The notes: generated from the sequence alone by a model not told the origin. Counted from the first letter of the stretch, positions 18,785 to 61,992 are shown. The stretch: DNA of 64,000 nt from a virus (IMGVR_UViG_3300027969_000043:96001-160000); one strand, 5' to 3'. Numbers and translations: made by a program.

Positions 18785-20191
18785 ATGGTAATTAGAACAT
18801 TTTTCGACAAGAATAATACCATAGTTAGAAATGAAGTTGTTAATACAGCTAGAAACCCAGTAACCGAATTATTTTACGGTGGGCCTACTGGTGAAAACAA
18901 ATATAGCCGTTACTTATTTCATTTTGATGAAACTAGATTAGTCAACATGTATGATAATGGTACATTTACTGATTTAACTAAACTAAAACACACATTAAAA
19001 CTAACTAATACAGCGTCATTTGACGAAGGGTTATTAAATGGTTCGTATCAATCAAAAGAAAGAGCGTGCTCATTCGACCTAATTGTTTTTAAAGTGGGTC
19101 AAGAGTGGGACGAAGGTGTTGGTTATGACTATTTATCCTGTAACCTGCTAACTGGCGATTGTGCTATATCAACAAAACCATCAACATGGGTTAATCCACA
19201 AACTGGTATAGTTTGGACTGGCGGTTCTGGTGTCTACTCAGGTTCACCAAGTGGGTTAACAATTGCAACACAACATTTTGATTTAGGTAATGAAAACCTA
19301 GAAGTTGATATTACAGATTACGTTAATGGTGTTATGACAGGAAACACAAATAATGGACTAGGTATAGCATACGCTCTCCCGTTTGAAATAACAAGTACAC
19401 AAAATATGCAATACGTTGGTTTTTTTACCAAATATACACAAACATTTTACGAGCCATACATTGAAACCATATATAGCAATTACATAACAGACGATAGAAA
19501 TAATTTCTTTTTGGATAAACCAAATAAACTTTATCTATACGTTAACGTAGCTGGAAACCCAACAAATTTAGATAACCTACCAACAGTATCAATACTTGAC
19601 GAAAACGGTGTAGCGTATACCTTTATTGAATCATCTGGTGTAACGCACGTAACAAAAGGTGTTTATTCAGTTGATTTAACAATTCCATCTGGGGATGGTG
19701 AAATAGGAACATTATTTAATGATGTTTGGCAGGATTTAGTAATCAACGGGGTTTCTAGACCAGATGTTAATCTCTATTTTGAATTAAAAGATAGTTTTGG
19801 TTATTATAACCTAGGCGACAGTGATTCGTTACCGAAAAAAGTAGCTGTATCGATATCTGGGGTTAGAAACCAAGAAAAAATAAAAAGGGGTGACACTAGA
19901 AAAGTAATTGTATCAACTAGAATACCATATACCATAGAACAAACACAAAACATATCAAATATAAAATATAGAATATATGTAACCGAAGGTAAAAATGAAC
20001 TAACCGTAGTTGATTTTCAACCTGTTGAACTAGCATCTAATTATAATTATTTCTTATTAGACACCCTAAGCCTAATTCCAAATGTATATTATTTAGATAT
20101 GTTAGTTGAATCTAATTTAGAGGTAACAACGTTAAAAAATGTTTTAAATTTTACTATTGTTAGCGAATCAAACTTAAGACAATCACAATGA
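18785..20191 (+). CDS. virion structural protein (beta-rich)
   Basis: SRYLFHFD, WDEGVG, DITDYV, NNGLGI, FFTKYT..P; late-type motif upstream. Confidence 0.6.
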   Translation: MVIRTFFDKNNTIVRNEVVNTARNPVTELFYGGPTGENKYSRYLFHFDETRLVNMYDNGTFTDLTKLKHTLKLTNTASFDEGLLNGSYQSKERACSFDLIVFKVGQEWDEGVGYDYLSCNLLTGDCAISTKPSTWVNPQTGIVWTGGSGVYSGSPSGLTIATQHFDLGNENLEVDITDYVNGVMTGNTNNGLGIAYALPFEITSTQNMQYVGFFTKYTQTFYEPYIETIYSNYITDDRNNFFLDKPNKLYLYVNVAGNPTNLDNLPTVSILDENGVAYTFIESSGVTHVTKGVYSVDLTIPSGDGEIGTLFNDVWQDLVINGVSRPDVNLYFELKDSFGYYNLGDSDSLPKKVAVSISGVRNQEKIKRGDTRKVIVSTRIPYTIEQTQNISNIKYRIYVTEGKNELTVVDFQPVELASNYNYFLLDTLSLIPNVYYLDMLVESNLEVTTLKNVLNFTIVSESNLRQSQ

Positions 20192-20541
20192 TGAAAGAAT
20201 TTATAAGAGAAAACTTAAGACTTAATACCCTTATTACAGAGAAAATAATTGACGGCCAAAAAATGAATCCGCAATTACAAACATTATGTAACACAATGAG
20301 TGTGAGAAGTTACCATGAAGTTTTGGGTAGACTCATTGCTGCTATTGGACACCCAGAAGAAAACCATGAATTATGGGCTAAGATAAAAAAACCCCTAGAT
20401 ATGCTTGAAAAAGCTAGCAAAGATTTAAATAAAGAAAAAAAAGAAAATGGTATGACAGGTGATTCAGAAGTAGACGAAGCAAATACTTGGTGGTCCGCAA
20501 TACAATCAACTCTTTGTGAACAAGGTCCAGAATTTCAATAA
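20188..20541 (+). CDS. hypothetical protein with an N-terminal LxE leader (candidate head cargo)
   Basis: MMKEFIRENLRLNTLITE. Confidence 0.55.
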   Translation: MMKEFIRENLRLNTLITEKIIDGQKMNPQLQTLCNTMSVRSYHEVLGRLIAAIGHPEENHELWAKIKKPLDMLEKASKDLNKEKKENGMTGDSEVDEANTWWSAIQSTLCEQGPEFQ

Positions 20542-20594
20542 TTAACTTTACATTTTTTTATTTTTTATTATATTTATTTTATACGTTAACTCAC

Positions 20595-20650
20595 GTATTG
20601 GTATCGAGCTATAAGCTTTAGAGTTGTCTAGGCAACAAAGATATTAGTAC
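20595..20650 (+). ncRNA. candidate structured cis-regulatory RNA (three-way junction) in a 5' UTR
   Basis: 11-bp P1 (GTATTGGTATC/GATATTAGTAC, 3 G-U pairs) enclosing hairpins GAGCT-ATA-AGCTT and GTTGT-CTAG-GCAAC. Confidence 0.45.
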
Positions 20651-20680: not shown

Positions 20681-21523
20681 ATGAAAAGAAGAATCTCTAT
20701 CGGGGAACCGATATCTAATCCTACAGCACAAATCTGTATCAACAAATCCAGACTTAAAGTCTACAACAAAGAAACCTCACCAACTTATTATTTAGAAAAA
20801 GGACAAGAGTTTCAAATCGAATTATTCAATCCAACAAAAAACACACTTTTAGCAAAAATCCAATTAAATGGAAAAGCTATATCACAAGGTGGTTTGGTGT
20901 TAAAGCCTGGCCAACGCGTGTTTTTAGAACGCTATTTAGATGTTGCTAAAAAATTCATGTTTGACACATACGAAGTATCAAATACAGAAGAAGTTAAAAA
21001 AGCCATCGAAGACAACGGCGATTTTAAAGTTGAATTTTATAAAGAATCTAATCCAACCCTTGTATATGGTACGGTAACAACATATAATACAAACAATCGA
21101 TTTACACTAACTGATAATTTTAATACTACAGCTCCTAATAATTACCTTAATCTTACTGGTAATATTACAAATACAACTTCGACGTATAGCTCTGGTATTG
21201 TAAATTGTAGTAATAGCTTTACTAATAATGTAACCAATGATAGCTTTGAACCTATACAACAAAAACCAAGACTTAGAAAAAGCTTAACCAAAAGCATAGA
21301 AACTGGTCGTGTTGAAGCTGGAAGTAGTTCAGACCAAAAATTTGAATATGTAAACAAAAGTTTTGATTACTACGCATTTCACACCGTAGAATGTAAACTA
21401 CTACCAATATCACAAAAAATAAATACGGCAGAAGATATCAACGTAAAAAGATATTGCACAAACTGTGGGACAAAACAAAAACCAGAATTTAAATTTTGTC
21501 CTAGCTGCGGAGAAAAATGCTAA
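20681..21523 (+). CDS. zinc-ribbon-containing hypothetical protein
   Basis: C-terminal YCTNCG...FCPSCG; Asn/Thr-rich linker. Confidence 0.7.
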   Translation: MKRRISIGEPISNPTAQICINKSRLKVYNKETSPTYYLEKGQEFQIELFNPTKNTLLAKIQLNGKAISQGGLVLKPGQRVFLERYLDVAKKFMFDTYEVSNTEEVKKAIEDNGDFKVEFYKESNPTLVYGTVTTYNTNNRFTLTDNFNTTAPNNYLNLTGNITNTTSTYSSGIVNCSNSFTNNVTNDSFEPIQQKPRLRKSLTKSIETGRVEAGSSSDQKFEYVNKSFDYYAFHTVECKLLPISQKINTAEDINVKRYCTNCGTKQKPEFKFCPSCGEKC

Positions 21524-21550: not shown

Positions 21551-21573
21551 AAAGCCCAGATTGTCTGGGCTTT
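21551..21573. terminator. bidirectional intrinsic terminator
   Basis: AAAGCCCAGA-TTG-TCTGGGCTTT between convergent genes. Confidence 0.8.
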
Positions 21574-21958
21574 ATTTATTTGGATATCTAATCATTGTAT
21601 TTCTAAACCTGAAATCTTTATACTTACCAGTATTTGAACCAAAACCAAATCGTTTATAGAAGCGTAATAAGCCTGTTTTAGAGCTTTCTGTGTCTTCTGG
21701 GGTTAATACACATAATAAATCATATTTATCACACAGCGCTGTTATTTCCGTCATCAATGCCGTTCCTAACCCCTGTCTTCTTTGCGCCTTGTCTTTTACC
21801 TTGATTGAGGCTACTTCAATTGCATCATTACCTTTCAAATATATCCAACAAGCCATACCCAATGCATCATATTTTTGTATGATACCATCTAATTCTGCTT
21901 GAATTTTAAATCTTGCATCATCTTCAACAACCTCTTGTAATATTTGTAATATTTTCAT
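21572..21958 (-). CDS. GNAT-family acetyltransferase
   Basis: QRRQGLGTALM (motif A), LLRFYKRFGF; leader MKILQILQE. Confidence 0.8.
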   Translation of the reverse strand: MKILQILQEVVEDDARFKIQAELDGIIQKYDALGMACWIYLKGNDAIEVASIKVKDKAQRRQGLGTALMTEITALCDKYDLLCVLTPEDTESSKTGLLRFYKRFGFGSNTGKYKDFRFRNTMIRYPNK

Positions 21959-21961
21959 ATA

Positions 21962-22726
21962 TTAATTTCTCATATTTTTACCCAGCAAACCTTCTCTATG
22001 CATTCTAAGTTTTAATTCTTTACGCCATTTGGCCCTTGTTTCACCTGTAAACTTATTATTAACACTATGCAATGATGGCGATAACTCTAACATATCTTGG
22101 AATGTCATCTCATCCCACATATCTTTATGTTTATTATACACTTGTTTAACATTATGAATTTGAGCTTGAATTTCCATTCTTGTTGCGTCTACAGGTATAC
22201 CACCTAAACTTGTTGTATTACGCTCCCTTGCTTTATCAACTCTTGCCTCAATATGTTTATTATTTAAAGTATCATCAATCCAATGTGCTAATTCATGATG
22301 TATACTACCTTTGATTCTTGCCTCGGTAAACTCTTTAATCAAGCTTTTTCTTTGTTTTTCATCGCTTAATTCGTCCAATGCCTTTTCTATATTGCCTTTA
22401 GCATAATTCATAACAAAACTAATAGCGTTTTTAAATGCGCCAATACCAATTATTTTATGTTTTGGGTTATAGAAATTAAGGCCTGGGTTTATTTTTATAA
22501 CGCATGGATTTAATTCATGACACTTAATTGAATCAGGTGACATTAAAATCGAAGTATCCGTTTCAGCCTCTTCAAACATTGAGCTAGTAACAAATCCTGT
22601 TCTTTCAATAGCATCAACATCATCCTTAAAATATTTATCATACAACATATCAACATCGCTATCAACTTCTGTTAATTTTTCTGACAAAAGATTTTCACGT
22701 AATAATTTTTTAATAAATGATTTCAT
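21962..22726 (-). CDS. putative zinc metallopeptidase with an LxE leader
   Basis: IHHELAH plus downstream MEIQAQ; leader MKSFIKKLLRENLLSEKLTE. Confidence 0.6.
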   Translation of the reverse strand: MKSFIKKLLRENLLSEKLTEVDSDVDMLYDKYFKDDVDAIERTGFVTSSMFEEAETDTSILMSPDSIKCHELNPCVIKINPGLNFYNPKHKIIGIGAFKNAISFVMNYAKGNIEKALDELSDEKQRKSLIKEFTEARIKGSIHHELAHWIDDTLNNKHIEARVDKARERNTTSLGGIPVDATRMEIQAQIHNVKQVYNKHKDMWDEMTFQDMLELSPSLHSVNNKFTGETRAKWRKELKLRMHREGLLGKNMRN

Positions 22727-22727
22727 A

Positions 22728-23318
22728 TTATTTTACCAAAAATTTAGAATAGTCCATAGTCGATGGTTTATCATTTTTAAAATAATACTTTTCAACTTTA
22801 TTACCGTACTTGATTGTTTTATAATAACCATCTGGAATTGTCGCACCTGTACTTAACTTAATTGATGATTTTGAAAAAACACATTGTATCTCAACATTAA
22901 CAATTTTATTTTCATTTGCCAATAATCTTTCACGCGCTTCTAATAATCGCCATGTTGTTCTATTTAAATCTTGATTTTGAAGTGAACAGTTTAAATAACT
23001 AAATGTTTTATACAGCATCTCTTTAGTACAATTAAAATCAGCTGCTGGTGCCATATGACCCTTATCATATATATTATTCACATAATCCATGTGGTCAGAT
23101 GTTTTAACACTATCTATGGTATAAAAATCCATACCCTTTCTAGACGCGTCGCCATTAGGACACTTTACAGTATATTTAACCCACACAGGTTGTTCCAAAA
23201 CTTCAGAATATATTACCTCGTAGATATCGGTTTTAATATGAACCTTATCTCTTAATTTTTGTGAAAATATACTTAACGGTATAATACCAATTAGTATAAT
23301 TAATAACATTTTTTTCAT
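22728..23318 (-). CDS. DNA/RNA non-specific endonuclease with a signal peptide
   Basis: YDKGHMAPAAD, TFSYLN..LQ..LN..W..LE; N-terminal MKKMLLIILIGIIPLSIFSQ. Confidence 0.85.
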   Translation of the reverse strand: MKKMLLIILIGIIPLSIFSQKLRDKVHIKTDIYEVIYSEVLEQPVWVKYTVKCPNGDASRKGMDFYTIDSVKTSDHMDYVNNIYDKGHMAPAADFNCTKEMLYKTFSYLNCSLQNQDLNRTTWRLLEARERLLANENKIVNVEIQCVFSKSSIKLSTGATIPDGYYKTIKYGNKVEKYYFKNDKPSTMDYSKFLVK

Positions 23319-24010
23319 ACTAATAAATATCTTGAACCCTTAGAAAGATTTTCAGTTCCCCATAGAGGTTGAAGATTACATAAATCCCAACATTCCTTAA
23401 ACTCTGGGTCATCCAATGATGTAAAATTAAAACTAGACATTGGTCTTATATGGTCAACATGCCATTGACCATAATTATCCCATGTCATACCTTCAGTAAA
23501 TTGTTTTTCCAAATGCTGCATCAACTCTTCAATTGTATAACCAAGTAATGCAAATGTAGAGCGATACTTAGCGACATTTTTTTCTTTTAAACATGTCCAT
23601 AGCGCTGTTCGTGTATTTCTACTTAACCTATATCTAGGGTCAATAGCGCATTTATTTTTATTGTATTCTCTAGAATATGCATTTACGTGCTCTCTATTTT
23701 CTTCCCTCCATTTAGTGTGTTGTTTGCGCACATAATTCCTATTTTTTTTAGACCATTTTTTATAAAATTCACTTCTTTTTAATCTTGTACCCACTTTAGT
23801 CTCATATTTTTTTTGTGCGACGGACCTACCACCAATGTTACGTCTTCCAGATGGACCAATCACAACCCCATTTTCTTTTAATGTTCTTATTATAATTGTT
23901 TTATGTATACCCATATGTTCACTTATAGTTGTGGAGCCTAATAATTCCTTAGTATACATTCTTATACACTCATCTACTTGCTCTTTTGTTAATTCAATTT
24001 TTTTACTCAT
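23315..24010 (-). CDS. HNH (homing) endonuclease
   Basis: WHVDHIRP...NLQPLWGTENLSK; N-terminal HTH-like segment; free-standing next to the capsid gene. Confidence 0.8.
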   Translation of the reverse strand: MSKKIELTKEQVDECIRMYTKELLGSTTISEHMGIHKTIIIRTLKENGVVIGPSGRRNIGGRSVAQKKYETKVGTRLKRSEFYKKWSKKNRNYVRKQHTKWREENREHVNAYSREYNKNKCAIDPRYRLSRNTRTALWTCLKEKNVAKYRSTFALLGYTIEELMQHLEKQFTEGMTWDNYGQWHVDHIRPMSSFNFTSLDDPEFKECWDLCNLQPLWGTENLSKGSRYLLV

Positions 24011-24107: not shown

Positions 24108-25958
24108 TTATCTCAATTCAGCAACATTAAATGTTGGAATACCATCTACTCTTACATGTCCGTAAAATCTATTATTGACACTCTTCTTAGCGTAACGAGT
24201 CATGATACCTTTAACTGGAGCAAAGTTAAATGGATTGTACATGGTTGGAGTTAATTGCAACGGCACGTATGGTGCGTAGATGTAACCTGTATCCAACAAT
24301 GACTTACCTTTATGTCCAATAATTATAGAGTATGATGGAGAATACGGGTCACGATAAACTTGATATCTACCGCCTAATGTACCGATTCTTTCAATACCCA
24401 TGTTATATTGGTCTTGCTCAGGATTAGCATCACTTACGTGGAAATATTCTAAATCATCGAATACTGCAGATACTTCTGAAGATACAACGATAAAGTTAGC
24501 ACCACCACGAAGAGTTGACTTGTGGATTTGAGCAGAAATTTGGTTAACTTTAGTTATTAAAGTTTGGTTCCAATCTTTCTGTGTGTAAGGACTAGAAGAT
24601 GAAGAAGCTTTTCTCCAACCGTTATAATCCCAACGTAATTGCCATGCAGCAACTTTACGCAAATCTCTCAAGATTTCTCTATCGATTTCCGCAGCAACTT
24701 GCTCAGATAACATTGCTGTTAATTCAGCTTCAGCATCGATGTTGTGGAATGCACTAACGTCTTGCGCTAATTCTGGAGACCAAGTAGCTCTTAATTTTCT
24801 TTCTTCTACAGAAACTACAACGTCAGTTAAAGTGAAAGAAACTTCACCCATTTCAGTTTCAAGTTCCAATGTAGCGTATTCAGCCCAAGCAGCAGTAAGT
24901 GCAGAGAATGAAGCTAATGTAGTTGCAGAAGCACCAACATAACCATCAAAAGTAGCCGTACCAGCAGCAGCAGAACCAGATGCAGTTGTACCAACTGGGT
25001 GAGTTAAGTCAAGACCCAAGAAGATATAACCAGTGTTATCAGTTAAATTTGTGTAATTAACGATACCTTGACCATATACTTGAGTAATAACACGGAAAGG
25101 AATAGCTCTGTTAGCAGCAACAATAACATTACCAGCATTATCTAAAATGTTAGAGCTAGTAACAACTTGTAAAGAAGCTAAGAAAGATTCTGTATCCATT
25201 GGGTTACCATCAGGACCAGTTAATACTTGTTTGTTAGAAGCACCACCTGTAAAACCAGATACAGCAACAACTAATTGTCTTAACGAACCATCAGCAGCAA
25301 CAGGACCTACAACAGCTGTAGAAACCGCAGCAACACGTGTGTATGAACCATCGCCGTTACCAGAGAAAACTGGAACATTACTCATAGTACGGATAGTCAA
25401 TGTACCTTTTGAGTTATCAAATAAACCATCATCATAGAATAAATCATAAAGATTTTTTGCTAAGAATGGTGTAACTACGCAAGTACCAGCAGCTGGTAAT
25501 ACGCAACTAGGAATACCAGAAGATGCAAAGCTAGTATGAGCTGAGAATGTTGTACCGTAAACATCAGAACCAGGTTGGTTTTGTGTATAGTCATTACCAG
25601 CAACACCAGAACCGTCTACACGACTAGAAGTCTGAGGTACGAAATAGAACAATTTACCAATTGGCATGTTCATAGCTTGTACAGACACGATGTCATTAGC
25701 TAATAATTTAGAGAATACTCTTCTCACGATAGGGAATACAACAGTTTCGAATGAACCTGAAGAGGTTGAAGTTGTTGATTCAGTTAATAATGAAGAAGCT
25801 TGGTTCTCATATAATTGAGCGATGTTTTCTTTTACGTGTCCTTTAAGACCTTCAAGAAAACCTAAGCTTTCCCATTTTGCTTGGGTTTCTTTACGGATAG
25901 CCTTCATGTGGTTTAATCCGATGTTCCCAACTTGTCCAGATGTTAATAAATGTGACAT
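24108..25958 (-). CDS. gp23: major capsid protein, T4 gp23-like
   Basis: FPIVRRVF, VSVQAM..P.G, RKLRATWSPELAQD, AEAEL..LSE..AAEIDREI, IYAPYVPL, P..GIMTRY. Confidence 0.95.
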   Translation of the reverse strand: MSHLLTSGQVGNIGLNHMKAIRKETQAKWESLGFLEGLKGHVKENIAQLYENQASSLLTESTTSTSSGSFETVVFPIVRRVFSKLLANDIVSVQAMNMPIGKLFYFVPQTSSRVDGSGVAGNDYTQNQPGSDVYGTTFSAHTSFASSGIPSCVLPAAGTCVVTPFLAKNLYDLFYDDGLFDNSKGTLTIRTMSNVPVFSGNGDGSYTRVAAVSTAVVGPVAADGSLRQLVVAVSGFTGGASNKQVLTGPDGNPMDTESFLASLQVVTSSNILDNAGNVIVAANRAIPFRVITQVYGQGIVNYTNLTDNTGYIFLGLDLTHPVGTTASGSAAAGTATFDGYVGASATTLASFSALTAAWAEYATLELETEMGEVSFTLTDVVVSVEERKLRATWSPELAQDVSAFHNIDAEAELTAMLSEQVAAEIDREILRDLRKVAAWQLRWDYNGWRKASSSSSPYTQKDWNQTLITKVNQISAQIHKSTLRGGANFIVVSSEVSAVFDDLEYFHVSDANPEQDQYNMGIERIGTLGGRYQVYRDPYSPSYSIIIGHKGKSLLDTGYIYAPYVPLQLTPTMYNPFNFAPVKGIMTRYAKKSVNNRFYGHVRVDGIPTFNVAELR

Positions 25959-25980: not shown

Positions 25981-27270
25981 TTAATATTTATCTTTATTTT
26001 CAACTCTATTAATTAAATCTTTAATTCTTTGAGTCGAAGGGTCAACATACGCAGTAGCTTCGTTTAATTGTTTTGAGCTACCTGTTGCAACCTCTTTGAT
26101 TATTTTACTACCGATTGATTCGTTAACTGGCTTTCTGCTAGATAATTCGTTAATGATAGTTTTGTATAACTTTTTAGACTCTTTAAGGTTAGTTACTTCC
26201 TCATCAAATCTTTGAATTATTTTTTTCTTTTCTTCTTTAGTAGTAGAATGTTCCATGAATAACTTAGTTACGTAACTTAAATTCGAATTGAAAACTACAG
26301 TTTCTACCAACATGCCTCTGAATTTCTTAAGAGCTTTTCTAAAGTCTTCATTTTCGGCTTTTAATTGTGTTGCTTCGTTTAACAATTTCTTGTACTTAAC
26401 CTCAGCTTCAATGATAACATTTTTAGAAGACACGGATTCTTTTTTTACGCCTGGACCTTTTGTGTAAATGTCTGGAAGATTAGAATGACCACCAACGCTT
26501 TTACCAACACCAGATTTAATTTTTTCTTGTACAGGGTTTTCGTCAGTTTCTTCTACTTCAGCAACAACTTCGTCAGATTCGTCAGACTCTTCTAAATTAG
26601 CATCATCTTTGTCTTCATCTTCCATCATTGTTGAATCTTCACCCATAGCTATTTCATAAGTTAACTCTTCTATTCCCTCATAGCCTTCTTCCATCTCATA
26701 TCCTTCCTCTTCCATAGACTCATCGCCCATTTCAGATTGGCCGCCCATTCCAAGTGCACCTTTTTTAACGATGTACTCGCCTGGTTCTGAGATGTTAAGG
26801 TGGATTTCATCACCAACAATTTCGATTTCATCATCACCACTCAATTTCTTGTAAATAGCGATAACGTCATCATCTGATGCGTCAGTCATATCCAAATCAT
26901 CTCCTCCTAGTGCATCGTCTGCACTCGTGCCTATTTCTTGGTCGTCTTCTGGACCAACTTCTGGAGACATTTCGTCGTCGTCATCAGATTCGTCGTCTCC
27001 GATTTCAATATCAGTATCATCATCTTCAGTACCTTCAACATCATCACCTTCTGGTGAATCAGTTTCGTCTCCTTCAGAATCAGAACCTTCAATCTCATCT
27101 TCAACGGCTTCTTCTTCGTAGCCAGCTTCTTCAAGCGACTCTTTCACCATACCATCAATTTCTTCTCTCGCAACGGAGCGAAGTATTTCTTTGGTGTTGG
27201 CATTTAAAGCTTCTTGGATAACTTTGATATCCAAAAGAGCTCCTTCATAAATTGATTTTTTTTCTGCCAT
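25981..27270 (-). CDS. prohead core/scaffold protein (gp22-like position)
   Basis: Highly acidic, C-terminal coiled coil, many (L/I/V)xE sites; lies between protease and capsid genes. Confidence 0.7.
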   Translation of the reverse strand: MAEKKSIYEGALLDIKVIQEALNANTKEILRSVAREEIDGMVKESLEEAGYEEEAVEDEIEGSDSEGDETDSPEGDDVEGTEDDDTDIEIGDDESDDDDEMSPEVGPEDDQEIGTSADDALGGDDLDMTDASDDDVIAIYKKLSGDDEIEIVGDEIHLNISEPGEYIVKKGALGMGGQSEMGDESMEEEGYEMEEGYEGIEELTYEIAMGEDSTMMEDEDKDDANLEESDESDEVVAEVEETDENPVQEKIKSGVGKSVGGHSNLPDIYTKGPGVKKESVSSKNVIIEAEVKYKKLLNEATQLKAENEDFRKALKKFRGMLVETVVFNSNLSYVTKLFMEHSTTKEEKKKIIQRFDEEVTNLKESKKLYKTIINELSSRKPVNESIGSKIIKEVATGSSKQLNEATAYVDPSTQRIKDLINRVENKDKY

Positions 27271-27391: not shown

Positions 27392-28090
27392 TTAACCGAT
27401 TAAGAAATTATCTAAACCCTCATTAAGATTTGATTTTTGTATGATTTTGTTTTCAACAAAGGGTTTTGCTTCTTCTCTGTTTTTAAACATCCAAGAGCCT
27501 GGGGTACTAGGCGCAGTAACAACGTCCCAACATATTAATTCAAAGTCGTCTTGAACAATGAAATCACCCTTGATTTCTTTTAATGAACCTACACCTCTAG
27601 AAGACACACCAATCATGATATTATTTCTTAATAAGTTTGCAACTTCGTCACCCTTTGTTGAAACAATACCGTAATTAATATACCCCTTGGTCATTAGGAT
27701 TTCCATTTTACCCATTAGGGTTTTTCCTTCCCACCATGTTTGTATGATATTATGGGATACTCTATCACCAGCAATAACGCTAGATTCAGGGTGGTCTAAT
27801 TCTCCAATCGCCCTTCTTTCCCTGATGGCTTGTTGATAAATTTCGTTTTGTGTTTTAAGTATTTCTTCTGGATAAATCCTTCCGTTTCTATTTTTTACAC
27901 CATATTTTTGGAGCACCACATAAACAACTAGGCTATCTGAGTCATCTTGACCCATTTCTAATTTTTTAAACTCTCTTATAAGAGATTGGTTTTTAGGGTC
28001 ACTAGGTGATATGAATCCAGCGTCATTTTCAATCAAATAACCTGTACCAACTTGACCAGCCTTTATTACTTTTAAATCCATATTTATCAT
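27392..28090 (-). CDS. gp21: prohead protease, T4 gp21-like
   Basis: KNRNGRIYP, GELDHP, VSH, GVSSRGVGS, VQDDF, DVV..PS. Confidence 0.93.
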   Translation of the reverse strand: MINMDLKVIKAGQVGTGYLIENDAGFISPSDPKNQSLIREFKKLEMGQDDSDSLVVYVVLQKYGVKNRNGRIYPEEILKTQNEIYQQAIRERRAIGELDHPESSVIAGDRVSHNIIQTWWEGKTLMGKMEILMTKGYINYGIVSTKGDEVANLLRNNIMIGVSSRGVGSLKEIKGDFIVQDDFELICWDVVTAPSTPGSWMFKNREEAKPFVENKIIQKSNLNEGLDNFLIG

Positions 28091-29420: not shown

Positions 29421-30200
29421 TTAATTATCAATTAAGTTATTTTTCAATTCCATAAGTTTAGAAATCTTATCAAGAAATTTATCGTTGTCAATTTCTTGGT
29501 CTTCTAATAACTTAGCTTTAACCTTTAATAATTTTTCTTTAGCTTCACCTGATTCTTCAGTTAACAACGTATCAATTATCTTAACACACTCATTAACTTC
29601 TTTTTGGTATAACTCTTTTTTCGCGTCAACATCTGGATTGATTAAAACCTTGATTACTTCTTTGTCAGCCTCGCTTAATGATGAATATTTGTCATTATAT
29701 TTCTCAACCATTAATTTTGATAACATACTTAACGGTAAATCAAAACTCTCGTTGACTTCTTTTGGTTTATTGGCTAAAATATAATCTGTTATATTTTTAA
29801 CCTCGGTCATAACGCTCTCAATATTTTGAGGTGTTTTATTAATAAACGTTAATTTTGTGATTGATTCGTGTAAATTCGATAAATTATATTTATCATCAAC
29901 ATTGTGTTTAATACCAATCAACATTGATGCCAATTTTGAATTTTCTTTCAAAATATCTTTTTGATTATACTTTTCTAATAATCTTAAGTTTTCTGAAACA
30001 AAAGAAAAAACAGATAATGAATCATCACCTATTTTATTTTCTATATTACTATAAATTAAAAATTGAGTTCTTAATATTTCACTTTCTTTAATTGTTTTAA
30101 TGTATTTTTTAAACAACTTTTTAGTGTTTTCATCTTTTTTTGCAATAGCCTCAACTAGTAAATTATTGAACGTATTTTTAATTTTACCAAAATTTTGCAT
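29421..30200 (-). CDS. hypothetical head-module protein
   Basis: 259 aa; between portal and protease; ATATTTAT at 30218-30225. Confidence 0.65.
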   Translation of the reverse strand: MQNFGKIKNTFNNLLVEAIAKKDENTKKLFKKYIKTIKESEILRTQFLIYSNIENKIGDDSLSVFSFVSENLRLLEKYNQKDILKENSKLASMLIGIKHNVDDKYNLSNLHESITKLTFINKTPQNIESVMTEVKNITDYILANKPKEVNESFDLPLSMLSKLMVEKYNDKYSSLSEADKEVIKVLINPDVDAKKELYQKEVNECVKIIDTLLTEESGEAKEKLLKVKAKLLEDQEIDNDKFLDKISKLMELKNNLIDN

Positions 30201-30250: not shown

Positions 30251-32296
30251 TTATTTGTTTAACATGTCATCAATATCGTTAATCATATTGTTAATACCCT
30301 CATTTATTTTTAAATTTTTATTGTAAATTTTGGTATTTTCTATTGGTTTAGGTTCGTTATCAACCATAGTGATTAACCTGTCAACAAATATAGATTTATA
30401 TTTTTCAGCCCTTTCGTTTAATTTATTTTGAATTTTTTTCTTTTCCTCAACTAATAAATTATCAATTCTTTTAATTTCTTCAGCGGTTGTTTCAGCTGCG
30501 GTCTCTTCAGCACCAGCAACTTCACCAGCAGCCGCTGCTTCACCACCAGCTTCAGTAGAAGCTGCCGCTTCTTCACCCTCAGCACCAGCTTCACCACCAC
30601 TAAAATCTAAATCAGTTTCAGTTGTACCACCACCACCAAATCCGCCACCTAATCCAGCTGTGCTACCACCGCCTCCACCTCCACCCGCAGGGGCTGCACC
30701 ACCATCAGCTGCCGCACCACCGCCACCTTCCATTGCAGCATTAATATCACCATAAATTCTATCAACAGTATCAAACATACCAGTATGCTTGATAACTTGT
30801 GCTGTATTTGCAATTTCTGCAGCTGCTGCTTTTTCCATTCTTTGCTCTAGAAGGTCTTGCTTGATATCGTCATCAGACCAACCAAGAATTTCTCTCTTAG
30901 CTCTTGTCATTGACATAGCACCAAAACCATTACCAGCATCAGAAACAGCATCTTTGTACAACGTAACTTTTAATTGCGTATGTTCAACCTTAAGCATTTC
31001 GGCCTGTGTTGATGGGTTATTTAATGTTAATGTAAAATTATCCAAATCATCCTCAAAACCCAATACGTATAAGTGAATGATAACAATTTTATTTAATTCT
31101 TGTAACATTGCTTGCTGTATTCTATTAACGGTTCTAGAGAATCTGATATCCTGAAGCGCTAGGTTTTTACCCTCACCAGTTGTTTCATCAAAACCTAAAA
31201 ATGGTTTAGGAACTCTTAGTGCTGTAAATAATTTTTTCTGTAAGTATTCAATATCGGCTATCTGGTCTAGATTAGCAGCACCAGGCAACGTATCAATCGG
31301 ATTTGGTGCGTCCTCGGTTCTTACTGGAATGAAGTAATCTTGGTCGTTTGATAATTGATTGTATCTTAAATCAATTTGACCTGTTGCGGGGTCAACAATA
31401 GGTGCTCTTTTAAATCTATTGGCAATTTCATTTACGTATGCTTCAACATCCTTATCATCAATATTACCAACATAAATTTTATATATCCTTCTTTCTGGTG
31501 CTCTAGTAACACGATATACCAACATAGCATCTTCAGAAAGAATTAGTTGTTTCCAAATTCTTCTAGCCTTTTCCAAAACAGATGTACCGTATGGTAATCT
31601 TCTATCATCACCTAACAATCTAAAGTGCGCCATTTGCCAAGAATTAAACTCAACGTCACGACCTCTCCAGTAAAATTTAACCTTGTCTGATATATAATTT
31701 TCATCTGTTTTTTGTGTTAGCATATCAAATAAGCCACCATCACGTCTTTCCATTTCATAGTTTGGCATTTGTTTAACACCAACAACACCATTCTCATCGT
31801 CAATGTTAAGGTACACAAAATTATCACCATATTTACAAGTATTTCTTGTCCACATTGGTAACGATGTATGTATATCAAGTCTATTAAACAATAAATCCTC
31901 AACTATACCCTTAACTCTTTTGCTTTCAGAATAAACATTAACCATTCTACCGCTAGAATTTAATGTTGTTGATTCCTCCATCATGATATCCAAAGCAGCA
32001 GCAATTTCTGGATAAAATTCCATTGCTTCAAAATCAGAATAAGAACCAATTCTAGTTGTTTCATAATTTACAGCTTGTTGAAATAACCCAGTCTCAACTT
32101 TTTTCCATACTTGTCCTAAGTATCTATTTTGTTGCGCTTGTAATTTTGCTGTTTCGTATTCTTGCTTATCTGTTGTCTTTAGTAAGACATCCTTATTAAT
32201 ATTAAACCTTTGAGGTGCAGGTTCATTAATTTTAAATCCTTCAGGTCCTAATATTTTGCCTAGTTTCTGAAATATGGTTAAATTATTTTTTGCCAT
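30251..32296 (-). CDS. gp20: portal protein, T4 gp20-like, with a C-terminal low-complexity extension
   Basis: PEIAAALD, YGTSVLE, EDAMLVYRVTRAPERRIYKIYVGN, DYFIP, IDTLPG, DIEYLQKKLFTALRVP. Confidence 0.93.
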   Translation of the reverse strand: MAKNNLTIFQKLGKILGPEGFKINEPAPQRFNINKDVLLKTTDKQEYETAKLQAQQNRYLGQVWKKVETGLFQQAVNYETTRIGSYSDFEAMEFYPEIAAALDIMMEESTTLNSSGRMVNVYSESKRVKGIVEDLLFNRLDIHTSLPMWTRNTCKYGDNFVYLNIDDENGVVGVKQMPNYEMERRDGGLFDMLTQKTDENYISDKVKFYWRGRDVEFNSWQMAHFRLLGDDRRLPYGTSVLEKARRIWKQLILSEDAMLVYRVTRAPERRIYKIYVGNIDDKDVEAYVNEIANRFKRAPIVDPATGQIDLRYNQLSNDQDYFIPVRTEDAPNPIDTLPGAANLDQIADIEYLQKKLFTALRVPKPFLGFDETTGEGKNLALQDIRFSRTVNRIQQAMLQELNKIVIIHLYVLGFEDDLDNFTLTLNNPSTQAEMLKVEHTQLKVTLYKDAVSDAGNGFGAMSMTRAKREILGWSDDDIKQDLLEQRMEKAAAAEIANTAQVIKHTGMFDTVDRIYGDINAAMEGGGGAAADGGAAPAGGGGGGGSTAGLGGGFGGGGTTETDLDFSGGEAGAEGEEAAASTEAGGEAAAAGEVAGAEETAAETTAEEIKRIDNLLVEEKKKIQNKLNERAEKYKSIFVDRLITMVDNEPKPIENTKIYNKNLKINEGINNMINDIDDMLNK

Positions 32297-48641: not shown

Positions 48642-50084
48642 ATGAATAGAGAAGAACTTATTGCAAAAGCTAGAGATATCGTTAATCAAGACGTTGTTAA
48701 AGGATTTACAGCAGATTTTTTAAAAATGGCAGCTAATGATACCGTTAACCCAAATAGATTTGAAACATATTTAAAAAATATCTCAGAACAAGCTTGGGAC
48801 CCAGGCACTGAAGAAAATACTATCTTTACATATAGTCAAGAATTGGTTGATATTGTAAAAGAATTATTCCCCAAAAATCTAGATTATCCATATCTTCAAG
48901 AAAGCGGCGTAAATACAGTTACAACAACACATATAAAAAGTAAAAAAAAAATCGAAAAAGGTCCTAATGAGATGAAAACATTTATTAAAAGTTCATTACG
49001 CGAATCTATCGTACCCCAAGAACCATTAACACCAAAAGAAGCGGCTATAAAAGTATTAAAAATGACCAAGGCAAGAGAGTTTCCAACGAAACCGCTACAT
49101 AAGCTAATGGTAAATATGATAGAGCATATTGAAGGTTTAGAGGATGTTAAACTTATTGAAGAATACCTATTAGAAAAACTTAGAGATAAAAAAATATCAC
49201 ACGCTGTAAGAGTTTATGTTATTAATAAGGCTAGAATGGCACTTATTGATGCCAATACACCGCCACCCTCAATAAACGAAGGTAGAGAACACACCGATGA
49301 CGAAATTGTAGATTTTAATGAGATTGACCTTCAACAAGAATACAATAAATTAAATCAGCTGCTATTTAATGGTAATCTTCAGCCAGTAACAATGTTATGG
49401 AATAAAAGAAAAGGAGCACACGGCGTTGTTAAAGGTACTAGAAGCAGAGCTACAGGTAAAATAACCCTTAAATCCCTTAGCATGTCCCAATTCCTTAAAG
49501 TACCATATAGATTCTTTAAAGATGTCTTAGCACATGAAATGATTCACGTATTCTGGATGCAACAAGATGTCAATGCTAAACATGGTCCTTTGTTTGTCCA
49601 ACAAATGAACAGAATTAACTCAATGGGGTTAGGATTTAACGTTAGTGTAAGGTCTGATTCATCAGAAACATCTAAGTTTGAAATGTCTTCAGACGTTGTA
49701 AAGGAAGGTATGGAACTTGTTTTTCTATTAATGAAGACAGATAAAGATGATAATATGTTTTCGGTTATGAAATATGATGCATATAAATCACAAGGATATA
49801 GAATTATTGATATCTACAATTACTTAGTTAACAAAAAACCTAAGTATAGATTTGCCGATGGTGAATTCTTTTTATCAACAAATCCAAGACTACAAGCTTC
49901 AAAAATACAAAGAAGCTTTGGTAGCGTAAGTTATTCAAGGATAGATAATGCTGTGGCTAATGAACTTAAGCAAAACGCTAAATTTTTGTGTAAATTTGAA
50001 ATTAATAATTCAAATGACGAACCACAGTTGTCTGGCCCTGACCAACCAAATCCAGCACCACCAAAAAGCTTATTAGGATTTTAA
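48642..50084 (+). CDS. modular protein with a SprT-like metalloprotease domain
   Basis: YNKLNQLLFNG..LAHEMIH..KHGPLF; internal leader MKTFIKSSLRE. Confidence 0.7.
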   Translation: MNREELIAKARDIVNQDVVKGFTADFLKMAANDTVNPNRFETYLKNISEQAWDPGTEENTIFTYSQELVDIVKELFPKNLDYPYLQESGVNTVTTTHIKSKKKIEKGPNEMKTFIKSSLRESIVPQEPLTPKEAAIKVLKMTKAREFPTKPLHKLMVNMIEHIEGLEDVKLIEEYLLEKLRDKKISHAVRVYVINKARMALIDANTPPPSINEGREHTDDEIVDFNEIDLQQEYNKLNQLLFNGNLQPVTMLWNKRKGAHGVVKGTRSRATGKITLKSLSMSQFLKVPYRFFKDVLAHEMIHVFWMQQDVNAKHGPLFVQQMNRINSMGLGFNVSVRSDSSETSKFEMSSDVVKEGMELVFLLMKTDKDDNMFSVMKYDAYKSQGYRIIDIYNYLVNKKPKYRFADGEFFLSTNPRLQASKIQRSFGSVSYSRIDNAVANELKQNAKFLCKFEINNSNDEPQLSGPDQPNPAPPKSLLGF

Positions 50085-52436: not shown

Positions 52437-52643
52437 TTACTTACCTTCAGTAAGTTTGTTGATTTTAGCTTCCAAAGCAGCTAATTTTGTTTCTAAAATA
52501 GAGTTTTTGTTACCTTTAGATGCTTGTTCTGCTAACCATTCTGTTTTCTTGATTTGAACCGCTTCACTAACGATATTGTCGATTAAGTTAACTAAATCGC
52601 TTTCAGAAATTTTAACTGTTTTTGTTGTTTTAGACATATGCAT
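52437..52643 (-). CDS. small hypothetical protein made mostly of leader-like LxE segments
   Basis: VKISESDLVNLIDNIVSE..LAE..ILE..LTE; ATATTTAT at 52676-52683. Confidence 0.6.
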   Translation of the reverse strand: MHMSKTTKTVKISESDLVNLIDNIVSEAVQIKKTEWLAEQASKGNKNSILETKLAALEAKINKLTEGK

Positions 52644-55286: not shown

Positions 55287-55610
55287 TTAAATGAAATTAA
55301 TTATTTTGTAATATAGTCTCTCTAATTCGGGTGAACGATGTTTAACATCTTCCATCACCTCTATACAGACCTCATTCGGGTCAAGATTGTCGGTTAGTTT
55401 ATATTGTAGTTCTTTGACTTTTAGATTATCTTTAATTGAATGCTTGAGCTCTAAAATGACTTGATTGTAGGTGAGCCAAGCTTTCTTATTTTTCATGTTA
55501 CCACCAATTAAAATATCGGTCACCTTATCTTCGTATATGTGCTCTAAATGAGTTTTAAAATCACCATATTCCGTTCTCAAAGTTTCTTTTATCTTATTCT
55601 TGATGTTCAT
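55287..55610 (-). CDS. hypothetical protein (paralog of 54837..55181)
   Basis: W.TYN.VI.EL...ELQYKLTD..DPN.V. Confidence 0.65.
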   Translation of the reverse strand: MNIKNKIKETLRTEYGDFKTHLEHIYEDKVTDILIGGNMKNKKAWLTYNQVILELKHSIKDNLKVKELQYKLTDNLDPNEVCIEVMEDVKHRSPELERLYYKIINFI

Positions 55611-55616: not shown

Positions 55617-55955
55617 TTAATTTATAGGCACATTTTTGGTTAGCTGGTTGTTTTTAATATTACCAAACATCCAATCTTGAATTACTTGTTGGGTAAATGA
55701 ATCACCCAATTTATATTTCTTTTTAAAATATTCAAATAACTCTTTAGGTGTTATCCCCTCGCCATCAACTTTAATTTTAATCATTGGTTCTTCCTTATAT
55801 TCACCGTTCTCCCTCACCACACCAAGCATAGGCTCATAATTCATATCTAAATCAGAAACCAATTCCGCAACCAATTTTTGGTGGGTATTGCTCTCATTGA
55901 TATGATTTAGTATTTTTTTATACTGATTTTCCGTTATAATTAATTTAACACTCAT
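55617..55955 (-). CDS. hypothetical protein with an ITENQY leader
   Basis: MSVKLIITENQYKKILNHINES; ATATTTAT at 55961-55968. Confidence 0.65.
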   Translation of the reverse strand: MSVKLIITENQYKKILNHINESNTHQKLVAELVSDLDMNYEPMLGVVRENGEYKEEPMIKIKVDGEGITPKELFEYFKKKYKLGDSFTQQVIQDWMFGNIKNNQLTKNVPIN

Positions 55956-57115: not shown

Positions 57116-57541
57116 TTAAATTTCTAGCGGTTTAATATTATTAAACTGAGCCGTTATATTGAAATCTTCTTGGTAATCTTGAATCTCTTCCAATTTGTCT
57201 AATATTAATGTAAGGTTTGTAGCTTTATCCGTAACAACATCTGCCATATCATATATTGCCGATTCTATTTCGCCATCATCGTCCTGTCCGTACATGCTCA
57301 TGAACTGTTTTCTTGCTTTATACATAAAATCCTCAATACTATACACAATCTTGCCAAGATTTTTTATGTTTATGTTCATAGATAAGATATCACCAACACT
57401 CTCAAATGTAATTTTTGAATATATTTTATCCAGTTCAGCAGATTTTTCATTACACAATTGCTTAAATTTGGCTAATTGGTCTTCGCTCTCCTTTATAAGC
57501 CTAATTTTATTATACTGATTTTCAGTTACTTTTATTTTCAT
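57116..57541 (-). CDS. hypothetical protein with a VTENQY leader
   Basis: MKIKVTENQYNKIRLIKES; ATG at 57541; ATATTTAT at 57557-57564. Confidence 0.65.
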   Translation of the reverse strand: MKIKVTENQYNKIRLIKESEDQLAKFKQLCNEKSAELDKIYSKITFESVGDILSMNINIKNLGKIVYSIEDFMYKARKQFMSMYGQDDDGEIESAIYDMADVVTDKATNLTLILDKLEEIQDYQEDFNITAQFNNIKPLEI

Positions 57542-59421: not shown

Positions 59422-60276
59422 GTGATATTTTATAAAAACATATTATTAGAAGCTGACGACGTTATTAAACGCCCAATATTTCATTTTACGGAATTAACAG
59501 GTATGTATGAAACGGCTATGAAAGGGTTGGATACAGAACTAAACATTCCAAAGGATGTGTTTAAAAGTTTCCAAATAAAAGATGAACTATACCCAAAAAT
59601 GTGGGCAAATGAACAACTTAAACCAGAAATTAGAAAACAATTACTCAAAATAGCTGTAGATTTTTTTACAAAATTAGAATTACCAGATGAAATAAAACTA
59701 AAAGATGTCTTGTTGGTCGGCAGCCTAGCTAATTATAATTGGTCCGAATACTCAGATGTTGATATGCATCTTGTTGTTGATTTCTCACAATTTAAAGAAG
59801 ATGAAGAATTTATAAAAAAATTCTTTGACGCACAAAAAAATCTTTATAATATAAAACACGACATCAAAATCGCTGGCCATGACGTAGAAGTCTACGTACA
59901 AGACAAAAACGACAAGGTACACGCTGGCGGCATATACTCATTGCCTAAAGATAATTGGGTACGTATGCCTATTAAAAATAGATTTACAGTTGATAGAAAA
60001 AATGTTAAACTAAAGGTAGATAAGTTCTTTGATAAAATCAAAAGCATTGAAAACACTTACAAAAAAGAAAATTATAAAGACGTAATCACTAAAATAGACG
60101 CACTAAAAGACTCGATAAAAAAAATGAGACAGGCTGGATTAGAAAAAGGTGGGGAGTACTCAATAGAAAATATTGTCTTTAAAGTGCTAAGAAGAACCGA
60201 TTTTATGGAACTTCTAGATACATATAAAAATAAATCTTACGATAAAATGGTAAGTGTAAACGAAGAACAACCATGA
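59422..60276 (+). CDS. Pol-beta-superfamily nucleotidyltransferase
   Basis: VGSLANYNWSEYSDVDMH (GS..DxD), VEVYVQD, R..GL..GEYS.EN; GTG start at 59422 after ATATTTAT at 59404-59411. Confidence 0.8.
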   Translation: MIFYKNILLEADDVIKRPIFHFTELTGMYETAMKGLDTELNIPKDVFKSFQIKDELYPKMWANEQLKPEIRKQLLKIAVDFFTKLELPDEIKLKDVLLVGSLANYNWSEYSDVDMHLVVDFSQFKEDEEFIKKFFDAQKNLYNIKHDIKIAGHDVEVYVQDKNDKVHAGGIYSLPKDNWVRMPIKNRFTVDRKNVKLKVDKFFDKIKSIENTYKKENYKDVITKIDALKDSIKKMRQAGLEKGGEYSIENIVFKVLRRTDFMELLDTYKNKSYDKMVSVNEEQP

Positions 60277-61295
60277 AAAATCTTATTTTAGAAAAATTAC
60301 ATATATTGCTTGAAGATAAGGGCTATAGGATTGCACCCCAAGACTACGGTGCGGAATTTAGACAAACTGGCTCAGGTAAGTCTATGACTGGTATTCCAAA
60401 CAAAAATGTTATCTCTGACGAAAAACTTAATCAAGTAATGGCTCAATTAGCCCTAGCAAAAGAAATATCTCTAAAATATAAAAGAGCTTGGGATAAAGGT
60501 GAAGAAGGCATTTTCGTAAATTGGATGGGTAGAAAAATGCTTATGAGAATTCCTAAAGAACTTAGAACAGCTACAGACCCTAACGGAAGACCAGTAGACT
60601 ATTCTAACTACTTTAATATCGCAACAATTGGTGATGGCGGATTCCAATACAAATTATACCCAAACGGAAATATACTAGGTGGTGTTGTACAATCTAGACC
60701 AGATATGGCCGATAGACCAAATTTAACTGGCGCCGTAGATGCTGGATATGACAAAACATTTGACGATAGAATCAAATACTTTTTTGTTAAAGCTGGTATC
60801 ATGGGCAAATATAAAGAAGAAGCTGGCAGATTCGCTAGCGTATTGGACACACCTGCCATAGACGCATCTGTTAAAGTACGTGTAATATTCCATGACGAAA
60901 TACTAGACTTTCTTACCAAAGATAAAGGTGCAGCACAATATACCGCAGATAAAAAAGGTGCCGAAATAGCAAACAAAATGGAATTCGAAAAGAAATTAGA
61001 AAAGATTAGAAAAGACGCTGAAATCGCAATCGGTAAACCAGTTTATGGTAGCAAAACTTGGATGGACTTTAAAGATAAGCTTAAAATCATGTTTGATAAC
61101 CCAGAAGAACAAAAGGCTATGGATATCAACCAAATGACCAAAGATTTTATTAAACAATATCAAGAAACCAATACCGTTCTATATAAAGGTAAACAACAAA
61201 TAACCATGGACCCAGACGAAGAAGCAGAATGGGAAAAAGAACAAAAAGAAAAATTAGCTAGAATAACAGCTGCTAAAGCTAGAATGAAAAAATAA
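60273..61295 (+). CDS. hypothetical protein with an LxE leader
   Basis: MKNLILEKLHILLED; ATGA overlap. Confidence 0.65.
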   Translation: MKNLILEKLHILLEDKGYRIAPQDYGAEFRQTGSGKSMTGIPNKNVISDEKLNQVMAQLALAKEISLKYKRAWDKGEEGIFVNWMGRKMLMRIPKELRTATDPNGRPVDYSNYFNIATIGDGGFQYKLYPNGNILGGVVQSRPDMADRPNLTGAVDAGYDKTFDDRIKYFFVKAGIMGKYKEEAGRFASVLDTPAIDASVKVRVIFHDEILDFLTKDKGAAQYTADKKGAEIANKMEFEKKLEKIRKDAEIAIGKPVYGSKTWMDFKDKLKIMFDNPEEQKAMDINQMTKDFIKQYQETNTVLYKGKQQITMDPDEEAEWEKEQKEKLARITAAKARMKK

Positions 61296-61299
61296 ACAT

Positions 61300-61992
61300 A
61301 TGAAAAAGAAACTATTAAAACAAAAAGAAAGGGCTATCATCGAAAGCTTTGCTAAGAATTTTAATAAAATTAAAAGACTTGACGAAAATGAAATTAGTGA
61401 AGAACCATTAAACGCCACCAATCATTTACAGGTGGGCGATAGATTAGAAAAAATAAATACATCAACACCAGACACTTTAACTATTGTAAAAATAGATGGT
61501 AATAAACTTTTTATAAAATCAGATGCGGCCAACCACGAATTTCAATGGACTCTAGATAGCGTCGATGATGAAATTAAAAGAGGTAAATTAAAATGGTTTC
61601 CAAAAAATGAATCACTAGATGAAATCAACCTTAAAAAAAGTTTGGCAACCCTAGGGTTAGCAGCAACCATGATGGGTGCACCTAAAGACGCTGCAGCTCA
61701 AATGCCACAACAACCACAAGGTATAGAAAAATCGGTTGCTAGTGCTCAAGCTTTGGGCTTGCCAGAAGACAATCGCAAAGCGGGTAAAGTAGTTATTGAT
61801 TCTTACACAAGAAATCCTTTTACTGCCGATATGTGGAGCAAAAAAAGCCGTGAAAATCTAAGGTTTTTTAAAACACTTAAAAAACTTGTTGATTATTATA
61901 TGGGCGGTGGACAAGTAGACGATTCTGATATTGAAGAATTAGGCGCAATGGTAAAACAATCACCAGTTGCTATGGATTTCTTACAAAGATAA
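61300..61992 (+). CDS. hypothetical modular protein with LxE sites
   Basis: IIES, LDE, ISE; internal SLDEINLKKSLATLGLAATMMG. Confidence 0.65.
   Translation: MKKKLLKQKERAIIESFAKNFNKIKRLDENEISEEPLNATNHLQVGDRLEKINTSTPDTLTIVKIDGNKLFIKSDAANHEFQWTLDSVDDEIKRGKLKWFPKNESLDEINLKKSLATLGLAATMMGAPKDAAAQMPQQPQGIEKSVASAQALGLPEDNRKAGKVVIDSYTRNPFTADMWSKKSRENLRFFKTLKKLVDYYMGGGQVDDSDIEELGAMVKQSPVAMDFLQR

Follow-up and report, generated by a model that had tools for sequence, protein, structure and literature searches.

Shared N-terminal leaders on unrelated proteins of an uncultured giant T4-like phage: candidate capsid-targeting propeptides

A phage fragment with a T4-type head module

We have analyzed a 64,000-nucleotide stretch, here called the window, that spans bases 96,001-160,000 of a single virus contig (IMGVR_UViG_3300027969_000043; 168,871 bp, ~31% G+C), with attention to the short leader peptides that begin a number of its otherwise unrelated proteins. 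A preliminary description of the window had proposed that such leaders, each ending in (L/I/V)xE, address a diverse set of enzymes to the phage head. CheckV puts the contig at approximately 48% complete, and a relative in IMG/VR, rated complete, measures 368,549 bp, showing that the contig is a fragment of a giant phage. The source is a giant T4-like phage of Bacteroidota that has not been cultured; contigs of this lineage occur in freshwater samples, and the capsid protein matches those of cultured phages at no more than 45% identity over 38% of its length.

The minus strand of the window carries a T4-type head module (Table 1). The gene earlier claimed to encode a protease, 27392..28090, is indeed recognized by Pfam as a gp21-type Peptidase_S77 and is thus a predicted protease, scoring 80.1 bits against PF03420 (cut-off 27) over profile positions 35-188 of 198; an S77 protease is present in all four related contigs tested and also in 100%- and 77%-complete relatives. 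The acidic product of 25981..27270 has no family match, and is presumably a scaffold or core protein because its gene sits between the protease and capsid genes, as in T4. Several head-module proteins conserve an N-terminal [LIV]xE at residues 17-23. Two very acidic Ser/Thr/Asp-rich proteins encoded on either side of 38208..40232 (36762-37823 and 40236-41867, minus strand) may be further core or internal proteins.

Table 1. Features of the window and contig. Positions marked 'genome' are counted on the whole contig, all others from the first base of the window; aa, amino acids.
Feature	Position	Strand	Basis or remark
Degenerate class 1 leader gene (MMKEFIRENL)	20188..20541	+	orthologues begin MKSFIKKLLREQL and MKEQIKNLLREGL
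Variable gene slot in this phage	21572-24010	-	
GNAT acetyltransferase; extra ~27-residue N-terminus (MKILQILQE), no recognized leader class	21572..21958	-	Pfam
Class 1 leader gene (MKSFIKKLLRENL, best score, 28.5); 254 aa, HELAH at residue 144	21962..22726	-	variable slot downstream of capsid gene
gp23-type major capsid protein, 616 aa, conserved ~60-residue propeptide	24108..25958	-	Pfam PF07068, E 1e-72; N-terminal alignment, four relatives
LLTE, capsid residues 57-60, likely maturation cut site	25779..25790	-	
Acidic scaffold/core-like protein, 429 aa, 13 [LI]xE sites	25981..27270	-	
gp21-type prohead serine protease (Peptidase_S77), predicted	27392..28090	-	Pfam PF03420
Head-module protein, 259 aa, nine [LI]xE sites, conserved leader-like N-terminus (..NNLLVE, E17)	29421..30200	-	
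Portal	30251..32296	-	
Large terminase	32596..34377	-	
Multi-domain head-side protein	38208..40232	-	phrog_1915, weak ParB-like, internal leader, phrog_7595
Internal class 1 leader (..EE-NMK-NLITQKLHEMV, score 14.7), residue 413 of 38208..40232	38964..39002	-	
ClpC/ClpA-type double-ring AAA+ unfoldase, MGF at residue 694	44835..47354	+	Pfam Clp_N, AAA, UVR, AAA_2, ClpB_D2-small
M78/IrrE-type zincin (HELVH), shortened class 1 leader (MKKSLLKEHLF)	47399..47791	+	PF06114, 23 bits vs cut-off 22
Class 1 leader gene (MYNIKKILNEEL, score 19.5)	47784..48638	+	conserved E10 and E23
Two-module protein: N-domain, internal leader, SprT-like zincin (HEMIH at residue 298)	48642..50084	+	Pfam PF10263
Internal class 1 leader (..NE-MK-TFIKSSLRESI, score 18.4), module junction, residue 113 of 48642..50084	48972..49010	+	
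Class 2-like leader (..KTVKISESDLVNLIDNIVSE), conserved 68-aa family	52437..52643	-	
Class 1-like leader (MNIKNKIKETLRTEY), conserved 107-aa family	55287..55610	-	orthologues begin MDIKxKIRxxLREQY
Class 2 leader (MSVKLIITENQYKKILNHINE), conserved 112-aa family	55617..55955	-	
Class 2 leader (MKIKVTENQYNKIRLIKE), 141-aa protein	57116..57541	-	E7 and E18 conserved
Nucleotidyltransferase, class 3 leader (..KNILLE)	59422..60276	+	weak PF22600, PF01909 (below curated cut-offs), phrog_36119
Degenerate class 1 leader gene (MKNLILEKLHILLED)	60273..61295	+	orthologues begin MKNFIKQKLYEAL, MNINIKRLLREAL, MKDFIRKRLHEAI
230-aa protein with ..RAIIES	61300..61992	+	
Class 2 carrier, 979-aa protein	genome 26844-29783		
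Class 2 carrier	genome 29818-30225		
Class 2 carrier, SNF2 helicase	genome 49097-50860		

Class 1 leaders

The main leader types appear to be two, a class 1 of ~11 residues (MKxxIKKLLRE) and a class 2 (KLIITExQLxxLKxxLxE). All ten N-termini quoted in the preliminary description are present, the capsid LLTE is where it was said to be, and the MKTFIKSSLRE reported as internal occupies residues 111-121 of 48642..50084. Class 1 becomes visible only through orthologues in four related contigs and 26 IMG/VR loci. A profile built from the orthologue leaders, with the consensus x-x-I-[KR]-[KQ]-L-L-R-E-x-L and a score threshold of 12, matches seven N-termini in the contig, four or five in each of the four related contigs and 55 in the 26 related loci; six control phages with a comparable GC content have no such match. 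The consensus ends in LLRE, with E and R as its most informative columns, and the pattern I-K-K-L-L-R-E-x-L places hydrophobic residues at i, i+1, i+4, i+5 and i+8. With their first 30 residues removed, the class 1 carriers fall into at least 25 families unrelated by BLAST.

An exact DNA pattern for M-K-x-x-I-K-K-L-L-R-E was then used to scan IMG/VR, finding at least 119 stretches. The 80 loci examined (mean 32% G+C) contain 89 open reading frames (ORFs) in 41 unrelated families, 83 of the ORFs being complete, at 57-652 aa, and only nine having an earlier in-frame ATG; by a rough estimate, about three matches to the 11-residue string are expected by chance. Every synonymous codon for I, K, L, R and E is in use in these leaders and the 40 nt upstream of class 1 ORFs are unrelated (median identity 0.35), indicating that selection acts on the peptide and that the leader is not a mobile DNA cassette. 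These patterns argue strongly that the sharing of leaders is non-random, and the earlier suggestion of a portable tag on diverse, unrelated proteins holds, with class 1 on seven and class 2 on six proteins of the contig. A literature search for the leader strings returned nothing relevant.

Of the ten examples in the preliminary description, two are unsupported as leaders. The best-scoring gene, 21962..22726, has a single orthologue that keeps the leader at a different N-terminus. We have not retained its assignment as a peptidase: it shows only an HExxH motif and, over 46 residues, a local match to the ArdC-like zincin, and it has no Pfam, PHROG or PDB match. Orthologues of the M78 protein begin MKxxIKxLL[RN]E[GR]L, with E8 conserved, and 60273..61295 is fused behind the nucleotidyltransferase in some relatives. 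An orthologue of a gene at genome 160004-160606 begins MKNIIKKLLREQF, and an ArdC-like protein of a relative begins MKSVIKKKLDELL. The two unsupported examples are 61300..61992, which has no orthologues in the sets examined and whose leader is therefore not supported, and the GNAT acetyltransferase, whose orthologues are without the extra N-terminus.

Class 2 and class 3 leaders

All-against-all scoring of N-termini within the genome gave values weakly above shuffles and was set aside; the only motif to stand out was class 2, K-[IL]-x-[ILV]-T-E-x-Q-[YLH]-x-x-[IL], the clearest leader and one that the preliminary description did not contain. Over 52,807 residues a loose form of the pattern matches at six N-termini and nowhere internally, with zero or one N-terminal match in the controls. 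The 26 related loci hold 38 N-terminal and four internal matches, many of them reading MKLIITESQLKRLKSRLTE, with two phi-x-E sites 12 residues apart; class 2 holds IITE plus a second LxE. Its carriers in the lineage, minus their first 30 residues, represent at least 15 BLAST-unrelated families. The 112-aa family has 67 database relatives, and in the 17 aligned, conservation reaches at least 90% at I6, I7, E9 and Q11 and is complete at E21. In its AlphaFold model (predicted local distance difference test 82) residues 9-39 form a single helix; Foldseek comparison of this model with PDB gave nothing below E 0.1, and the family has no match in the phage collection. The 979-aa class 2 protein gave no Pfam, PHROG or Atlas lead.

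Class 3 belongs to the nucleotidyltransferase family, which conserves MK[LF]F..N[IL][IL][IV]EN; orthologues begin MKLFLxxNIIIEN or ..SLLVEN, and the start codon in this phage is probably the GTG at 59422.

The bare motif does not discriminate

The preliminary description defined its leaders as short basic or amphipathic peptides ending in (L/I/V)xE. Across the 155 ORFs of at least 60 aa in the whole contig, [LI]xE within the first 20 residues occurs 70 times against 41 +/- 5 when each N-terminus is shuffled (z 5-6); 38% of the contig proteins have it, the Glu being commonest at residue 9. Internal windows give a z of ~1.3, and [LIV]xD, [LIV]xK and [LIV]xxE show no N-terminal enrichment in the same ORFs. 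The enrichment is therefore real, but a milder excess is present in five of the six control phages (T4, 2.3; P-SSM2, 2.1; immuto, 2.2; Staphylococcus K, 1.8; Lactococcus 949, 3.4; the sixth, Listeria A511, 1.1), and K, A511 and 949 have no S77 protease even though 949 has the highest control value. The bare motif is also found in 27-29% of ordinary genes, including eight of the 30 genes of a glycan-enzyme block, so that it does not discriminate; the signal proper resides in the specific portable leaders of classes 1-3. Removing 21 leader genes, which were chosen in part because they have the motif, leaves the remaining genes at the control level (42 versus 29.5, z 2.5). We therefore dropped the bare-motif statistics as support. 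In a weak test, conserved [LIVM]xE sites among orthologues are 1.8x denser in the first 25 residues than elsewhere.

The generic baseline raises the question of whether the leaders have any function, or are a by-product of AT-rich codons, N-terminal helix preferences, or the translation needs of near-leaderless mRNAs. The excess in controls, including those without S77, the frequency of the motif in ordinary genes, the lack of orthologue support for 61300..61992 and the GNAT N-terminus, and an upstream element only 12-13 nt before the ATG of many leader genes (see below) are all in keeping with this explanation. It does not account for the complete absence of class 1 N-terminal matches from the controls, for one exact string heading 41 unrelated families, for a peptide that stays fixed while synonymous codons vary, or for copies situated away from start codons. 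We regard a lack of function as very improbable and as largely refuted for classes 1 and 2; it could still account for 61300..61992 and the GNAT N-terminus.

Gene context and the upstream element

In each of the five genomes a co-oriented variable slot separates the capsid gene from a convergent gene that is conserved (the 20681..21523 family). It holds one to four genes that differ in each genome, most of which start with a class 1 leader. Two further genes of the slot in this phage encode an endonuclease VII-like protein (23315..24010, phrog_1035) and a signal-peptide protein (22728..23318). A genome carries a modest set of leader genes, with five of class 1 and two of class 2 in the complete 368-kb relative.

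Genes for the protease, scaffold, terminase, sheath and fibre have the element ATATTTAT upstream, at a spacing of 16-72 nt in the case of head genes, as do many leader genes. Of 99 IMG/VR leader genes, 43 have its start 12-13 nt ahead of their ATG, and the M78 gene 47399..47791 has its own copy 13 nt upstream; at this distance transcripts would have almost no 5' untranslated region. Promoter-like ATATTTAT sites at this short spacing lie at 47386-47393, 55961-55968, 56694-56701, 52335-52342, 23323-23330 and 24015-24022, and also in related loci L112-L230. For the 'late-type' label given earlier to the leader genes, the shared element is the sole support; it also precedes a helicase-like gene, and we rejected the classing of genes as early or late by promoter. 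No second upstream element separating gene classes was found. Just past the window end (genome 160627-161444), a longer conserved element, TTTTTCTGGG.ATTTTTC... with ATATTTAT after it, is common to the upstream regions of two leader genes, genome 160004-160606 and genome 160679-161431, and an ORF-less unit farther on carries it as well.

Leaders at module junctions and C-termini

Beyond the one internal copy quoted in the preliminary description, further internal and C-terminal copies are present. In 48642..50084 the class 1 leader separates the N-domain from the SprT-like zincin, and the last module of 38208..40232, behind its internal leader, corresponds in a relative to two free-standing genes that are each initiated by a leader. 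The GNAT and M78 domains form a single ORF in relatives (L061:13494-14225, L066:18087-18818, L081:15749-16618 and others) whose joint is occupied by the leader together with an in-frame Met-Lys; here the two are separate genes 25 kb apart. In relatives the leader is also found one to three residues before the stop codon of short ORFs. A Glu precedes the leader by 3-4 residues in 22 of the 29 distinct non-N-terminal copies, against a background of 7% Glu per position.

Cargo domains

The leader carriers include an ArdC-N plus zincin protein, M78 and SprT-like proteins, an HExxH protein, an SNF2 helicase, a ParB-like multidomain protein and the nucleotidyltransferase. In the first of these (genome 56129-57370) ArdC-N is accompanied by HELAH and a weak match to MPTase-PolyVal, and the SNF2 helicase carrier weakly matches a DarB-like anti-restriction PHROG profile; cargo assignments beyond the ArdC-type, zincin, ParB-like and GNAT domains rest on PHROG matches to very long profiles. 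Two or more conflict-type domains may reside in one polypeptide in genome 56129-57370 and in 38208..40232, the matches being partly weak in both, and most other carriers are single-domain. The proposal that the cargo is effector-like gains from these domains, which match known or predicted injected proteins, and from the variable leader genes immediately after the capsid gene.

Iyer, Burroughs, Anand, de Souza and Aravind (2017; PMC5512222) describe polyvalent proteins, which they assign to delivery with invading DNA, that contain ArdC-type, zincin-peptidase, ParB-like and GNAT domains. The overlap with the leader carriers extends to ArdC-N, zincin peptidase, ParB-like and GNAT, and delivery with the DNA and proteolytic processing are predicted for both. 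The two differ in that here the domains are mostly on separate leader-bearing genes, or are modules joined by a leader, and in that the predicted processing enzyme is the head protease and not an embedded peptidase.

Relationship to the capsid propeptide and to T4

In five genomes the capsid propeptide hardly varies, reading ..QLYENQAxxLL-x-E-[SA]TT, with T, N or S between L and E, and a gp23-like VFPIVRRVF segment follows 14 residues after LL-x-E. LLTE, whose position relative to T4 gp23 is a predicted one, is the likely cut site. The LLRE end of class 1 resembles this conserved LLxE. An LIE at residues 19-21 of the protease, conserved in relatives, is a possible self-cleavage site.

In T4, the prohead protease takes ten N-terminal residues (MAKINELLRE) off gp24 and 65 off gp23, and internal proteins IPI-III and Alt lose short N-terminal peptides to the same enzyme (PMC9958956). 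The gp24 N-terminus is the best class 1 match among T4 N-termini, scoring 11.2, under the threshold of 12, and its propeptide has the same LLRE end and the same length as class 1; gp24 differs in being a shell protein and not cargo, and no gp24 paralogue that might carry the leader was found in the contig. Among the closest known systems is the T4 capsid-targeting sequence of IPI, IPII, IPIII and Alt (PMC3012670, PMC9958956), likewise an N-terminal MK...[LI]-x-E peptide of ~10 residues, carried by otherwise unrelated and variable proteins, with a gp21-family protease and scattered, changeable genes. The system here departs from it in that its leaders fall into three or more classes, its cargo spans dozens of families across the lineage, enzymes in many cases, and copies also lie at junctions and C-termini, and in being known from sequence.

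The phiKZ and SPN3US proteases cut at a different motif, small residue-x-Glu. Like the present phage, phiKZ and SPN3US are giant, and in both a T4-related prohead protease, a relative of gp21, processes many head proteins that enter the host, with cleavage of the propeptides of ejection proteins; the abstracts on them mention no short shared N-terminal tag of this kind (PMC5694885, PMC7411985, PMC10052503).

A possible role as capsid-targeting propeptides

We favor, with a probability of roughly 55%, the interpretation that the leaders are T4-type capsid-targeting propeptides, clipped by the S77 protease, that load changeable conflict enzymes. The earlier proposal of capsid addressing thus finds partial support, the sequence-level predictions examined having all turned out in its favor. 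From the sequence we infer a pathway of docking, cleavage, packaging and injection: the short amphipathic leader would dock its protein to the scaffold core during prohead assembly, and the gp21-type protease 27392..28090 would cut after the Glu of phi-phi-x-E, the same enzyme presumably cutting the capsid protein after LLTE(60) and chopping the scaffold. The trimmed proteins would remain inside the head until they are injected together with the DNA. In fused modules the leader, usually with its preceding Glu, would be an excisable joint, and the cargo would be a changeable set of conflict enzymes, which in other phages are united in single 'polyvalent' proteins.

Several observations weigh against this interpretation. 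The T4 IPII/IPIII tag MKTYQEFIAE scores -11.8 on the class 1 profile and has no resemblance to it, and Flavobacterium phage immuto, which is the closest phage in culture yet a distant one, is without leaders. A canonical [LIVM]xE precedes the leader at only 12 of 29 internal junctions, and five of the 29 non-N-terminal copies are at the extreme C-terminus, a placement for which we know of no T4 precedent. The conserved residues of class 2 extend beyond its first Glu, cuts at E9 or E21 of the 112-aa protein would fall inside the predicted helix, and two class 2 genes are situated among tail genes (genome 26844-30225), where the head protease is not expected. Lastly, a ClpC-like gene lies directly upstream of the row of M78 and leader genes, here and in every related locus examined; this gene was not part of the preliminary description.

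Some of these features would be accommodated if the leaders are a common docking or assembly helix without any link to the capsid, with a hub protein, the membrane or DNA as the partner and the Glu as a binding residue and not a cut site. The conserved amphipathic pattern of class 1 far exceeds what a cut site needs, class 2 is predicted to be the start of a long helix that belongs to the fold, and both the C-terminal copies and the class 2 genes in the tail module suit a docking helix. There is no candidate hub, however, and such a helix does not predict a likeness to protease-processed peptides, the slot behind the capsid gene, or domains of the injected-effector type. On balance we consider this rather unlikely.

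The neighboring ClpC-like gene suggests a different role, in which the leaders are tags for this ClpC/ClpA-type unfoldase (44835..47354), leading to unfolding, remodelling, or handover to host ClpP for timed destruction. Its MGF tripeptide is at what we take to be the position of the ClpP-docking loop in ClpA and ClpC, tags for unfoldases can sit at either end of a protein, in keeping with N-terminal, internal and C-terminal leaders, and N-terminal signals of the Met-basic-hydrophobic type are known for ClpX. Most leader genes are not near the Clp gene, however, and several come right after the capsid gene. An unfoldase tag also leaves unexplained why the Glu is invariant, why the leader matches the capsid LLxE and the clipped peptide of T4 gp24, and why a second Glu stands ahead of internal copies, and there is no ClpP gene in the contig, which is about half a genome. 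A role as unfoldase tags is thus quite unlikely.

Returning to capsid-targeting propeptides, their principle is already known from the T4 capsid-targeting sequence. What is new here are the leader sequences themselves, the presence of at least three classes, the breadth of dozens of families with many enzymes, the junction and C-terminal placement, and the link to polyvalent domains. More tentatively, and with odds somewhat short of even, these might together constitute a lineage-wide 'address and clip' code, in which at least three leader classes at the start, junction or end of proteins load interchangeable anti-defence enzymes into the capsid, the arsenal amounting to a polyvalent protein whose parts are spread over separate genes, each with its own tag.

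Injected proteins act ahead of phage gene expression and decide whether host defences win, and they are hard to recognize from sequence. Were such a code in use, a leader would suffice to predict injected effectors in thousands of genomes from uncultured phages, with the ArdC-like, zincin, SprT-like, SNF2 and nucleotidyltransferase proteins as candidates here. The T4 internal-protein trick would then be an ancient, expandable system and not a T-even peculiarity, and the leader could serve as a packaging tag, being short enough for direct reporter fusions.

Other genes near the leader genes

The PcfJ family is known from conjugative plasmids. A PcfJ-like protein is encoded at 62024-63364 (minus strand; Pfam 25.7 bits versus a cut-off of 25) and has a conserved N-terminal LIQE at residues 10-13. 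Genes for a leucine-rich-repeat protein (53379-54815, minus strand) and an RNase H-like PF04308 protein (52712-53221, minus strand) lie amid small leader genes, and one orthologue of the leucine-rich-repeat protein in a relative begins with a class 1 leader.

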